Below, piece after piece: positions 35,718 through 39,671 of a stretch of 39,671 nucleotides of DNA. The stretch's first letter is position 1, and each line of letters opens with the position of its first letter. The notes beneath the pieces are model-generated. The model made no database searches and had not been told where the DNA came from. It was given only the letters and a program-made list of their open reading frames with translations. A program made the position numbers and the translations under genes. This DNA is from Prosthecobacter sp. (GTDB taxonomy: Bacteria > Verrucomicrobiota > Verrucomicrobiia > Verrucomicrobiales > Verrucomicrobiaceae): contig DAORHS010000001.1 in NCBI GenBank assembly GCA_035438165.1, forward strand, positions 1 through 39,671. Reading direction: 5' to 3'.

Positions 35718-35753
35718 GAGGCGCGGATGCTAGACGGAAAGCCGTCCCGCGCC

Positions 35754-35790
35754 AAAACAAAAGCTCCCGGCCAGCGGACTGACCGGGAGC
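35754..35790 (-). terminator. Rho-independent terminator of barrel gene 1
   Basis: Minus strand GCTCCCGGTCAG-TCCG-CTGGCCGGGAGC (12-bp stem with one G-U) followed by TTTTGTTTT. Confidence 0.85.
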
Positions 35791-35834
35791 CCCAACCTAA
35801 TCAGACTGAATGCAGGCCGCGAGGCCCGCGTGAA

Positions 35835-36752
35835 TTAGAAGGAGACGCTCAACTTCACGCCACCGAAGATTTCGTTGTCGTGGGTGGCGTTCAGGTAGTT
35901 ACGAGTGCTTCCGGAGAAGTTCCATGCCACGTAGGGGGTGAGCGTGGCGATCTTCGTCAGCTGAATCGGAGTGGCGACGCTGAAGAGCACATGGGTGAAG
36001 CCGCTCGACTGGGTGCCCAGACCCACAAAAGCAGCGGAGTTGCTGCGGGTGCCGGTGTAGTAGTTGATGCCGTAGCCAGCCTGAACAGCCGGAACGATGC
36101 TGAGCCAGTCATTGACTGCATACGTGTAGTCCACAGCCGCCTGGAAATACTGACCACCGATGGTGAGGTCATAGAAATAGCCGGTGGAGAAGTTGAAGGC
36201 ACCGAGCGGGATCGCCATGGTGACACCGACTTCATGAGCACCAGTCAGGCCCATTTCCGGATCGCCGTTATTCACGCCGGTGCCGTTGATGGAGCCGGAG
36301 TAGGTGTCCGGATAGCCGTAGTACTGATATTGGACGCCAAATGTGGCAAATCCGGCATCATAGGCCAGGGAGGTGTAGAGGTCGTACTCGGAGTAGTCGA
36401 AGGCCTGGTTCGTCACACCGTTCTGGGGGGTTTGGAGGGAGGAGATGTAGCCAGCGCCGAGGCCCCAGGTCAGGCTGCCAGCACCGTCTTCAGCCGCACC
36501 ACCGATCACCGGAATGGAAAGATTGATGAAGGAGGAGATGATGTTGTCAGCGAACCACAGACCGCGGAAGTAGTAGCGGCTGTCGTAGGCGACGCTCAGG
36601 TCGGCTCCGACGGAGTCGAACAGGGTGGCCGGCTCGGTCACCGGGGTAACCGGCGCCTTGGCGGGAGTGCCGGCGGATGCGTTCAGCGCTGCACAGGCAG
36701 CAAGAACGGTCACCGATTTGGCAATGAGGGATGTCATGCTTTTGGGCTTCAT
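35835..36752 (-). CDS. Outer-membrane beta-barrel protein (TorF/TIGR02001-like putative porin), paralog 1
   Basis: Signal peptide, GTPAKAPV linker, YDSRYYFRG, alternating aromatic strands, ATLTPYVA, C-terminal GVKLSVSF. Confidence 0.75.
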   Translation of the reverse strand: MKPKSMTSLIAKSVTVLAACAALNASAGTPAKAPVTPVTEPATLFDSVGADLSVAYDSRYYFRGLWFADNIISSFINLSIPVIGGAAEDGAGSLTWGLGAGYISSLQTPQNGVTNQAFDYSEYDLYTSLAYDAGFATFGVQYQYYGYPDTYSGSINGTGVNNGDPEMGLTGAHEVGVTMAIPLGAFNFSTGYFYDLTIGGQYFQAAVDYTYAVNDWLSIVPAVQAGYGINYYTGTRSNSAAFVGLGTQSSGFTHVLFSVATPIQLTKIATLTPYVAWNFSGSTRNYLNATHDNEIFGGVKLSVSF

Positions 36753-36832
36753 GTGTTGGTCGAGTATAGTTATTGTTGGTGTTGAGGCGCTGAACTGACC
36801 GGGAAGACAGTGCAGCTTACAGGCTGTTCCAA

Positions 36833-36848
36833 AGCATCTGCCATGCCA
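36833..36848 (-). promoter_or_regulatory. Putative sigma54 (-24/-12) promoter of barrel gene 1
   Basis: Minus strand TGGCATGGCAGATGCT vs consensus TGGCACG-N4-TTGCW, with exact GG-N10-GC spacing; about 80 nt upstream of the ATG, with an AT-rich tract further upstream. Confidence 0.7.
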
Positions 36849-37024
36849 GGTTTTGGCCGTTCTTGGAAATTGTTAGGGCAATCAATACAACTCAAAAACA
36901 ATTCACCTCCTTCGCCATATTGCCTTGGTTGATCCTTCTGGCGGTGTTTGAAAGTGGCCTCCTCTCCTGGTGTCTTTCGTGGTTTCTTGATACCTACGAC
37001 CTGAAGGGCGGACCGAACATGTAC

Positions 37025-37056
37025 AAAAAAACCCCCGGTCTCACGACCGGGGGTTT
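37025..37056 (-). terminator. Rho-independent terminator of barrel gene 2
   Basis: Minus strand CCCCCGGTC-GTGA-GACCGGGGG (GNRA loop) followed by T7. Confidence 0.92.
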
Positions 37057-37104
37057 CCATAGACTGATTGGTTCTGTACGTGCCTTCCGAGAGGAAGACG
37101 AGTA

Positions 37105-38127
37105 TTAGAAGCGGATGCTCAGGGAGGCACCAGCGTACCAGACGGTTTCAAAGCCCGTGCTTGGCGGGTTGATGCCAGCAGCAGTAAGGCCTGCGTTGGA
37201 CTGGGACGCCTGAGCCGCATTGCTCAAGGCACCCATGGGCATGTTGACGGCCACATAGGGAGTCAAAGTTGCACGGCTGTTGAGCTTGATCGGGAAGGCG
37301 AGTCTGACGTTGGCAGCTGCCCAGCCGGAAATGCTGTCACCACCGCTTTCAGCGACACCCGAACCAAAGATGCCACCGGCACCACCCAGGAAGCTGTTGG
37401 CGGAGTCCGGGGTGAACTGCCAGCTGTAGCTCGCGACGTAGCCAACATTGAAGCTGGGCACGAAGCTGATGGCGTCCGTGATCGCAATGGTCGTGCTGGC
37501 GGTGAGGTCGAAGTACCAGCCGCCGTTGGTCAGGTCATAGTTGGCACTGGAAGCGAGGTCGATCGGACCCACGGAGGTGTTGATGCCGAGGTAAACTTCC
37601 TGGGTGTCATTCATGCCATGGTAGCTATTGCCAGCAAAAGTTGGTCCGTTCCAGACCTTCTGATCGGCCAAGTCGCCCATGTTGTAGAAGTAACGATAGC
37701 CGAGGCTCACGGTAGCAGGACCAAAGTCATGCGCGAAAGCAGCAGCCAATTGGAGACGCTGGAGCCCATTGCTATCGTTAAAGGGAAGACCAACTCCGCT
37801 GAAAGCAGGAGTGAACGCATCGTTGTCACCAGCGAGGAAGCCCCAGTTCACATCCCAGAGGAGGGAGGTGCTGCCGGCGCCATCTTCACCGGCACCGCCG
37901 ACGAGGAGGATGTCTCCATTAAGGCCAGCGCTGACCCAGTTGGAGCCGAAGTTGACGCCGCGCCAGACATAGCTGGAGTCGTAGCCAAGGGAGGCGTTGA
38001 TGCCGAGATCGTCATTCACCGGAGCGGGAGCGATCGGGTTTTTAGGAGCGGGAGCGGTTCCGGCCACAACGGGAGTGGCGGCCAGTGCCAAGAACCCCAG
38101 CGTTTTCAGCAATGCATTCAATTTCAT
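37105..38127 (-). CDS. Outer-membrane beta-barrel protein, paralog 2
   Basis: Signal peptide, GTAPAPKNP, YDSSYVWRG, VGGAGEDGAGS (compare IGGAAEDGAGS in paralog 1), ATLTPYVA, C-terminal GASLSIRF. Confidence 0.75.
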   Translation of the reverse strand: MKLNALLKTLGFLALAATPVVAGTAPAPKNPIAPAPVNDDLGINASLGYDSSYVWRGVNFGSNWVSAGLNGDILLVGGAGEDGAGSTSLLWDVNWGFLAGDNDAFTPAFSGVGLPFNDSNGLQRLQLAAAFAHDFGPATVSLGYRYFYNMGDLADQKVWNGPTFAGNSYHGMNDTQEVYLGINTSVGPIDLASSANYDLTNGGWYFDLTASTTIAITDAISFVPSFNVGYVASYSWQFTPDSANSFLGGAGGIFGSGVAESGGDSISGWAAANVRLAFPIKLNSRATLTPYVAVNMPMGALSNAAQASQSNAGLTAAGINPPSTGFETVWYAGASLSIRF

Positions 38128-38406
38128 AGTCTGATTAGTTTGGTATTAGGTTGGTTGGGTTGAGGTCGGACACTCGCATGGAATGCAGCAAAACAGGAGC
38201 TTTGATGCACAGTACGTGAGCCGTTCAGCCGATTAAATAGCAGCTGCCGCAATCACTGGAAAGCATTTTCTTTATCTTTCGGGCACTTTTTTGGCACGGC
38301 GGCACATCTCTAGCTTTGCCACTGGCCTCGCCTCCGTTCGTTTCCAACAAGCCCAACGGCTTGTTAATTGGTTGAATGGGGGGCTGAAGGCGGTTACTCA
38401 CGGGGC

Positions 38407-39018
38407 ATGAAGCGCCTTCTGTCCCCGGCTTTTCTCCTGGCCTGCTTGTTGCCTTTGCGTTCCCAGGAGGTCTCCCCATCTCTAGTTCTGCCGGTGCGGG
38501 TACATCTGGTGCAGTCGGTGGCTCATCCCCGACTTCAAACCACTGTTTCTGAGGCCGGTGTTCGTGCCATCTTTGACGAGGTGAATGCGATTTGGGCTCA
38601 AGCGGGCATTCGTTTTGAAATTGAGGCCGTCGGGGTGCTGCAAGCTCTGGACAGGCCCCTCAAAAAGTGGTTCGAAAGGGATCGCAACTGGGTGAAGGCG
38701 GCGATCCCAACGAATCAGTTCAGTCCCACCGCCATTGATGTGTGTTTCGTGAAGGAAATGGGGCCCAATGGATTTTTCTACGGAGAGCCGGTTGTGGTGT
38801 GCGAAAACCCCGAATTTACCAAGGTGAAAGGCGGGTCGGACAATCCTGTCGCCCGCGTGGCGGCTCACGAACTCGGCCACGTCCTGTTCCTCAAACACCG
38901 GCAGGAACACACCAACCTGATGGCCTCCGGGCGGAACGGCGTCTCCCTGAATAATCAGGAGATCAGGGATGCCAGAGAGCGAGCTCTGCAGATTTTGGGG
39001 CAGATGCCCGTGCCTTGA
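38407..39018 (+). CDS. Secreted zincin/metzincin-like metallopeptidase
   Basis: Signal peptide; VNAIWAQAGIRF; AAHELGHVLFLKH (HExxHxxxxxH, F in place of the usual G) followed by NLM Met-turn. ATG 38407. Confidence 0.75.
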   Translation: MKRLLSPAFLLACLLPLRSQEVSPSLVLPVRVHLVQSVAHPRLQTTVSEAGVRAIFDEVNAIWAQAGIRFEIEAVGVLQALDRPLKKWFERDRNWVKAAIPTNQFSPTAIDVCFVKEMGPNGFFYGEPVVVCENPEFTKVKGGSDNPVARVAAHELGHVLFLKHRQEHTNLMASGRNGVSLNNQEIRDARERALQILGQMPVP

Positions 39019-39020
39019 AC

Positions 39021-39237
39021 CTACAGCGCCTTCTTCAGAGCGAGTCCCAGCGCTTCGATCTGGGCGGCGGAATGCAGGGCGCTGACGGTGATGCGCAGCC
39101 TGGCGCTGCCTCTTGCGACCGTGGGGTAACGAATGCAGGGAATGAGGAATCCGGCATCTCGCAGGCGGGCGCTGATCTCCAGGGCACGACACGCCTCTCC
39201 CAAAATCACCGGCAGGATGGCCCCCGGGCCTGGACAT
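39021..39237 (-). CDS. bioF: C-terminal fragment of 8-amino-7-oxononanoate synthase (5' part absent)
   Basis: AILPVILGE..ALEISARLRDAGFLIPCIRYPTVARGSARLRITVSALH is the typical BioF C-terminus; similarity stops at about 39237. Confidence 0.75.
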
Positions 39238-39633
39238 ACCACCGACGGCGACGCGGTGCACCGCCTCACGCATCCCCGCTACCGCATCCCGGGCAGCTAC
39301 GTCGCGCTGGTGCACGGCCGGCCCACGGCCGAGGTGGAGAAGGCGGTGCAGGGGCGGATCGAGCTCGACGGCCGCGCGGTGGAACCACAGCGGCTCCGGG
39401 TCCGTCCGGGGAAGGAAGGCCGCAGCCTGATCGACCTGACGCTCACCGAGGGCCGCAACGGCGGGGTGCGCCGGTGGTGCGAGGCGATGGGGCTCAAGGT
39501 GGAACGGCTGGCCCGCCTCTCGTACGGCCCCGTCCGCCTCGGCGACCTGGCGGTGGGCAAGAGCCGCCCGCTCACCCCCGCGGAGGAGGCGGGCCTCTAC
39601 AAGGCCATCAAGATGGGGGGCGGCCGGGACTAG
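39238..39633 (+). CDS. C-terminal fragment of an RsuA/RluB-family rRNA pseudouridine synthase (5' part absent)
   Basis: TTDGDAVHRLTHPRY...Y, LTLTEGRN..VRR..EAMGLKVERLARLSYGPVRLGDL..G..RPLT; the S4 domain and GRLD catalytic motif are missing. Confidence 0.8.
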   Translation, partial: TTDGDAVHRLTHPRYRIPGSYVALVHGRPTAEVEKAVQGRIELDGRAVEPQRLRVRPGKEGRSLIDLTLTEGRNGGVRRWCEAMGLKVERLARLSYGPVRLGDLAVGKSRPLTPAEEAGLYKAIKMGGGRD

Positions 39634-39671
39634 GACCTTCCTGTGGCGGGGCTCACTCCTCCGGTCGTCCG

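Follow-up and report, generated by a model that had tools for sequence, protein, structure and literature searches.

Most of the known regulatory RNAs that derive from the 3' untranslated regions (UTRs) of mRNAs come from Proteobacteria with Hfq or from a few Gram-positives. The Planctomycetes-Verrucomicrobia-Chlamydiae (PVC) group has 8 annotated small RNA (sRNA) families, versus 345 in Proteobacteria (PMC9029176, Table 1). We analysed 39,671 nucleotides of DNA from Prosthecobacter sp., a member of the Verrucomicrobiaceae (GenBank assembly GCA_035438165.1, contig DAORHS010000001.1, positions 1 to 39,671), hereafter "the window", which carries two paralogous genes for predicted outer-membrane barrels, PA upstream and PB downstream. 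From the complementarity of the two sequences, the 3' end of the PB mRNA probably base-pairs in trans with the PA mRNA and shuts PA off when PB is induced.

SodF and SodN of Streptomyces coelicolor are non-homologous isoenzymes. In s-SodF the 3' UTR of sodF represses sodN (PMC3919588, PMC9438474) and, as with PA and PB, an mRNA 3' end is complementary to the start region of the alternative gene. Further likenesses are the long pairing (19 nt in s-SodF), the Hfq independence, which is a proposed one for PA/PB, and the first recognition as complementarity between sense strands (PMC3919588). PA and PB differ in being genuine paralogs (identity 32% in 300 columns, E 7e-30) rather than an isoenzyme pair; they are predicted envelope barrels, with predicted sigma54 control and a bipartite seed, and s-SodF was shown experimentally whereas the PA/PB switch is known from sequence alone. 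MicF is encoded by a separate sRNA gene next to ompC, under a promoter of its own, and is not the tail of a porin mRNA. Under OmpR, this antisense RNA blocks translation of one porin, OmpF, and the paralogous porin is favoured (PMC13501541). MalH (malEFG 3' end, repressing ompC and ompA; PMC9438474) is a 3'-end RNA that reshapes the set of porins in response to a nutrient signal, but its source is an ABC-transporter operon instead of a porin gene, it is cut by RNase E in Hfq-bearing enterobacteria, and ompC and ompA are not paralogous to its source. NarS (narK 3' UTR, repressing nirC; PMC9438474) and FarS (fabB 3' UTR, repressing two fadE paralogs; PMC7148568) are cases of mRNA cross-regulation, among transporters or enzymes within one process, via a processed 3' UTR; their targets are unrelated to the source gene, and FarS requires Hfq (PMC7148568). 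GlnZ (glnA 3' UTR, NtrC/sigma54; PMC13501541) shares a 3' UTR origin under sigma54-type control, but has metabolic targets, and no NtrC-like box was found in the PB upstream regions. Our literature search, with subscription papers mostly outside its range, found no report of the PB/PA pairing, nor of any porin whose mRNA tail represses a paralog of that porin, and the word "paralog" is absent from the accessible text of the reviews PMC9438474 and PMC13501541.

The elements of the proposed switch are given below. In the comparison, G000 is the genome of the window, other G numbers are genomes and L numbers are loci or contigs.

35835–36752, minus strand: PB, the downstream gene (305 aa), a predicted 12-stranded outer-membrane barrel and source of the candidate regulatory 3' end (open reading frame, structure model, fold search).
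37105–38127, minus strand: PA, the upstream gene (340 aa), a predicted 12-stranded outer-membrane barrel and the predicted target (open reading frame, structure model).
35812–35829, minus strand: small hairpin after the PB stop codon, 7 bp, of variable sequence (fold, alignment).
35792–35807, minus strand: antisense seed UCUGAU…GGUUGG in the PB 3' UTR (complementarity, shuffles, alignment).
35752–35793, minus strand: PB intrinsic terminator, where the regulatory RNA is predicted to end (fold, highly conserved columns).
38128–38143, minus strand: main target site abutting the PA AUG, with the conserved core AUCAGA at -8 to -3 (complementarity, leader counts).
38145–38154, minus strand: upstream target block CCAACCUAAU, which takes part in the duplexes of G007, G001, G046, G087, G103 and others.
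38128–38226, minus strand: PA 5' leader of ~100 nt, with a conserved outer stem, a covarying inner hairpin and an unpaired A/C-rich tract (fold of a 56-leader alignment, G000 fold).

The initial annotation of this DNA, in which PB was paralog 1 and PA paralog 2, had placed both genes on the minus strand and described the 3' UTR of the one as antisense to the translation start of the other. We recovered this arrangement: the arms at 35792–35807 and 38128–38143 form an inverted match with 15 of 16 positions complementary. The CAUUC start at 35812, the second, perfect 10-mer target block at 38154–38145 (minus strand) and the location of the stretch between the 7-bp hairpin and the terminator (35793–35760) were also as described. 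The pairing had further been extended over the AUG. Such an extension is present in G000 and a few other genomes, but the positions facing leader -2 to +1 are not conserved.

Within the 5.27-Mb assembly (83% complete), the 11-nt core occurred exactly twice, as the two arms, and a search for the 16-mer with at most one mismatch likewise returned only these. Among 20,931 candidate start regions, that of PA came second in raw duplex energy; one of the top raw duplexes came from a spurious, GC-rich frame. When the best 581 of these regions were rescored with opening energies, PA ranked first, with -17.4 kcal/mol versus -14.9 kcal/mol for the next. A conserved antisense open reading frame from the leader-like plus strand at 35792 was considered and rejected, as the frame ends after six codons.

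Among 104 further genomes from the genus, 100 had a PB-type gene and 58 a PA match at 1e-15, the latter count including a few cross-matches to PB. The PB tree had two clades, PB1 and PB2. PA was found in 50/53 PB1 genomes and not found in the 39 PB2 genomes sampled. This contrast is essentially a single evolutionary split, and thus indicates an association, not repeated co-occurrence.

For the pairing we took as linker the 28 nt before the terminator, and scored it against dinucleotide shuffles (p<=0.05), controls of the kind proposed in the initial annotation. Against the PA leader, 42/55 PB1 linkers beat their shuffles (median z -3.7). The PB2 linkers, from the 39 genomes without PA found, were scored against a five-leader panel, and 2/49 did so. 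The PA leader was preferred to the similarly A/C-rich leader of the linker's own gene in 45/49 cases. The seed paired with the PA leader of the same genome in 41/49 genomes (26/33 with the genes in tandem, 12/12 unlinked, 3/4 unclear), so that the complementarity is conserved in relatives. Metagenome contigs with both parts showed the pairing in 6/7 cases, some of which possibly overlap the genome set; 17/24 metagenome loci were without one partner. A strict pattern of seed plus terminator was found in 23/105 genomes, and its reversed control in none. The counts leave out six UTRs in which no terminator was parsed (G005, G093, G118, the second copy of G080 and two of PA) and the PB1 genomes for which a PA leader was not available (G021, G054, G082, G084), and the automatic labels of the first tree, being noisy, were set aside for seed presence. 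Cross-pairing between family copies, scored in 11 genomes with no PA leader available, gave nothing convincing (22 pairs, best z -2.1). The inverted match is not a product of chance.

Pairing in the opposite direction, from PA 3' linkers to PB leaders, reached p<=0.05 in 5/62 cases (median z -0.1). A toggle between PA and PB was therefore rejected, the PA 3' linkers being without excess pairing to PB leaders.

The five-base core of the duplex was fixed by the anchoring of the alignment and was not counted as evidence of covariation. The pair adjoining it, scored in 36 genomes with a single leader state, was U-A in 16, C-G in 9 and unpaired in 11. The following pair had changed from A-U to G-C in G116, the C-G match of G088 was with one of its extra PA copies, and G046 had an extra 13-bp perfect block against the upstream site. 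Cognate linkers and leaders paired on average more strongly than non-cognate ones (-16.0 vs -14.7 kcal/mol, permutation p 1e-4). The preference persisted after collapsing to 34 types (p 0.0008) and without the C-G clade (p 0.003), although relatedness inflates such tests. Compensatory changes in orthologous loci, which the initial annotation had suggested looking for, were thus found, though from few events. Together, conservation, target rank, cognate preference, compensatory changes and retention in trans support the antisense reading.

The PB UTR folded in the order hairpin, linker, terminator. In the UTR alignment the UCUGAU columns were 80–90% conserved and the GGUUG columns 70–90%, versus 30–60% for the first hairpin and the spacer. 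As in 3' UTR-derived sRNAs, the candidate lies in an mRNA 3' UTR with a shared intrinsic terminator, has a conserved seed between variable flanks, and has a trans target at a translation start with covariation (few events, one counter-example). An Rfam search returned only two weak matches, far under the gathering score, and no family membership. The genome-wide terminator count (89) was too strict, and serves as a hint only. Elsewhere on the PB transcript, the leader carried a hairpin with UCCCGG (36804–36793, minus strand; present in 75/102 PB leaders). This motif repeats the 5' arm of the family terminators (35789–35760), making the terminator 3' arm complementary to the PB leader hairpin; by eye, covariation between the two was not seen.

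On the target side, ATCAGA was present in 61/68 distinct PA leaders and in 0/104 PB leaders. The target stretch was unpaired in the fold of the G000 leader, and 35/56 PA leaders had a mean unpaired probability >0.9 at -25 to -4. Watson-Crick pairing with the seed fell in two blocks, with a median of 14 nt and up to 21 nt, compared with 7 nt in PB2. Two RNA contigs stopped within the leader, at 38205 and 38215, a weak hint on its extent. Upstream of the target, at 38226–38168 (minus strand), the 56 leaders (97–102 nt) shared an outer stem that hardly varies and, inside it, a hairpin in which many types of compensatory pair occur. This element had no Rfam match, and is possibly a new cis-regulatory or stabilising element. 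The PA 3' UTR of G000 contained a sense mimic of the PA start region (37068–37058, minus strand), which pairs with the seed at -16.1 kcal/mol. Found in 2/65 PA UTRs (G000 and G007), it is a possible decoy. In the extra PA copies L040, L041, L060, L076 and L042 (from G017, G014, G103, G088 and G002) the leader AUCAGA was altered or lost, as if escaping the seed.

With respect to expression, three further features were predicted.

36834–36848, minus strand: predicted PB sigma54 (-24/-12) promoter (TGGCA-N8-GC motif).
38234–38262, minus strand: predicted PA sigma70-type promoter, TTTCCA, 17 nt and an extended TGnTA -10, deduced from a conserved motif.
37028–37055, minus strand: PA terminator-like hairpin and U-tract, between PA and PB (fold; RNA contig stops as a weak hint).

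The sigma54-type motif TGGCA-N8-GC was found upstream of 53/56 PB1, 28/46 PB2 and 0/68 PA genes. A sigma70-like motif, TTTcA…GCTA, was present in 61/68 PA upstream regions; a scan with a generic sigma70 consensus found no site at the predicted PA promoter. A search for a shared operator upstream of PB1 found none. Several PB2 upstream regions (e.g., L016, L020, L148) shared an AT-rich motif, TTTTCAGAAAA, before the sigma54 site, and 14/25 contained TGAA-N13-TTCA, a possible activator or IHF site. RpoN, RNase E/G and RNA recognition motif (RRM) proteins were each found in 5/5 genomes. Hfq was not found in the 31 genomes searched (controls positive in 5/14), nor ProQ in the 5 genomes searched. 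RNA contigs covered PA in 4/4 runs, from ~38215 to 37064–37111, and parts of PB in three. Contigs from three studies ended at 37064–37073, where the DNA contig X3 continues, giving a weak hint of the PA terminator.

We propose the following mechanism. PA would be the default channel, transcribed from its sigma70-type promoter. A signal acting through a sigma54 activator would induce PB, whose 3' end would be the active RNA, most likely as a fragment of 45–85 nt released by RNase E/G, or otherwise as part of the whole mRNA. Between the two species, analogy with known systems leans slightly towards the cut fragment. GGUUG(G) would nucleate on the open CCAAC repeats of the PA leader, UCUGAU would seal AUCAGA at -8 to -3, and PA initiation would be blocked, so that the membrane would swap the PA channel for the PB channel. 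A pairing of 14–21 Watson-Crick nt may make a chaperone unnecessary, which would explain the proposed Hfq independence. The two-block pattern suggests that the seed arose when the PA leader was copied in inverted orientation, with later trimming by deletion. A wholly self-contained switch, built by barrel duplication and an inverted copy in the paralog 3' UTR, and silencing without Hfq or ProQ and possibly uncut, is a reading that we put forward tentatively.

Several observations weigh against the switch. The seed was non-significant in 8/49 genomes and plainly lost in G089/G067/G094, G004/G109, G050 and G118, and a search of five seed-less genomes for a second copy gave matches at control level, none of them seed-like. 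The PA leader kept ATCAGA in 7/7 seed-less genomes, showing that the target is conserved independently of the seed; loss of the seed with the leader intact signifies that the switch would be dispensable and that the leader is conserved for reasons of its own. When PA linkers were scored against PA leaders, 11/63 also beat their shuffles, via the GGUU motif. The nine C-G genomes share a common N terminus and belong to two or three neighbouring groups, pointing to probably one or two events. Only 27/41 linkers individually preferred their own leader, and in contig L191 a C in the seed faces an A in the tandem PA leader, a counter-example. The seed may also fold on itself, the linker forming a weak G-U-rich hairpin in the minimum-energy fold and being open in the centroid. 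No NtrC-like box was found upstream of PB (0/78). PA and PB were both present in the bulk metatranscriptomes X15 and X16. The seed was covered by no listed RNA contig; these contigs give neither ends nor levels, and accordingly their depth was not used to rank PA against PB and the non-coverage of the seed is not evidence of absence. As a separate observation, six seed-less PB UTRs (L071, L078, L094, L181, L189, L199) had in its place a small AACC…GGUU hairpin that is characteristic of PA UTRs (42/65), which suggests replacement by gene conversion.

Four other explanations were weighed. We consider it unlikely that the UTR motif is left over from an old inverted PA-leader duplication and now kept for another mRNA target or as a protein site, for instance for an RRM protein. 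Seeds do read as two blocks of the leader reverse complement, with the lengths given above, their GGUU half resembles the 3' arm of the PA UTR hairpin, RRM proteins are present, and the seed has been lost from several PA-bearing genomes. However, even with PB identities as low as 52% and with scrambled flanks, the seed follows the changes in the PA leader of its own genome; it is absent where PA was not found, and G000 offers no better target than PA.

Also improbable is that the pairing is real with a different outcome, the PA mRNA acting on PB by titration or co-degradation, or the contact only tuning PA. Complementarity as such is directionless, the RNA contigs favour PA in number of runs, the PA leader stays conserved whether or not the seed is present, and the sense mimics of G000 and G007 hint at extra titration. 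Against this, the duplex covers -17 to -1 of the PA start but merely the post-stop linker of PB, where there is little to block, and it is in the seed, not in the leader, that the length adjusts.

That a G/U-rich UTR matches A/C-rich leaders by chance or through composition is very improbable: leaders of the genus are indeed A/C-rich, but neither the dinucleotide shuffles nor the own-leader and PB2 controls reproduce the match. Finally, the less favoured reading of the initial annotation, in which the arms with their 15/16 inverted match in G000 are recombination sites of an invertible 2.3-kb DNA segment, has a negligible probability and was rejected, because the pairing is kept in all 12 unlinked genomes, because two of these genomes, G053 with 690 kb between the genes and G111 with 373 kb, carry PA and PB on opposite strands, an arrangement in which the DNA motifs form direct repeats although the mRNAs stay complementary, and which excludes inversion, because the arms of relatives differ by bulges and G-U-type changes, because no strand-switch joints were found in 4 DNA runs (whose contigs show presence only), and because inversion would separate PA from its promoter.

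The proposed antisense switch would act between two barrel proteins. In the PB model an N-terminal helix precedes a 12-stranded barrel (pLDDT 83.8), and the PA model is alike (pLDDT 68.4, one good model of five). Both end in a C-terminal Phe and, as expected of outer-membrane beta-barrels, have a signal-peptide-like N terminus and an even number of strands. The best fold match of PB was PcoB (Z 17.2, rmsd 3.2, 192 aligned), followed by KdgM (Z 16.6), VhGalP (15.9), autotransporter barrels, FapF and NanC, and a second fold search was similar. PA and PB resemble TorF/Gcw_chp (PF09694), PcoB, KdgM and NanC in the 12-stranded fold, but remain under the Pfam cut-off, with remote similarity only and 9–12% identity to solved barrels. 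Pfam gave no match in 97/97 PB homologs, and Pfam and NCBIfam gave nothing meaningful for PA or PB, with no PF09694 match above the cut-off, five genomes included. In a feature-level atlas the matches were mostly unnamed clusters, plus one TorF/Gcw_chp cluster at 0.96. Profile matches to Gcw_chp loci (22 among 182 frames, E<=0.01) were weak, with 17 for PA and 11 for PB. Literature searches on TorF and on Akkermansia returned nothing relevant. Models, fold searches and weak profile matches together support PA and PB as small outer-membrane barrels, remotely TorF-like. For the barrel fold, the earlier porin assignment is backed by two models and two fold searches; porin function itself is likely, though autotransporter barrels and FapF are among the fold matches too.

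Homologs with names came chiefly from Prosthecobacter, including P. fluviatilis and P. vanneervenii, and other Verrucomicrobiaceae, and sequencing runs containing the window DNA chiefly from activated sludge and wastewater. The gene downstream of PB (35717–34041, minus strand) belongs to the dihydroxy-acid dehydratase family, and in many relatives a promoter-like conserved sequence overlaps the PB terminator tail. Upstream of PA, a divergent gene (38404–39018, plus strand) has a zinc-peptidase-like HExxH motif and a weak Peptidase_M10 match; L035 has a divergent open reading frame of similar size. At 39015–39671 a pseudouridine-synthase fragment (plus strand) abuts the apparent 3' end of another gene (minus strand, near 39255–39020). 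The sequence style changes abruptly there, possibly due to an assembly join at the contig end. Elsewhere in G000, contig C420 carries a third barrel gene, of PB type (L039), with a weaker seed (p 0.07) and without the sigma54 motif. In G002, L042 encodes a 634-aa protein in which two PA-like barrels are fused in a single frame.

PA and PB represent a concrete predicted regulator-target pair in the PVC group, in genomes where neither Hfq nor ProQ was found. The case is one of paralog on paralog, and makes the birth of an sRNA seed testable, as the sequence of this seed looks like an inverted copy of the target, shortened by trimming. The natural compensatory, escape and loss variants can be used as controls. 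If the self-contained switch is true, it would be a first worked-out base-pairing regulator for Verrucomicrobiota, and the birth, refinement, escape and repeated loss of a seed would be visible within one genus.

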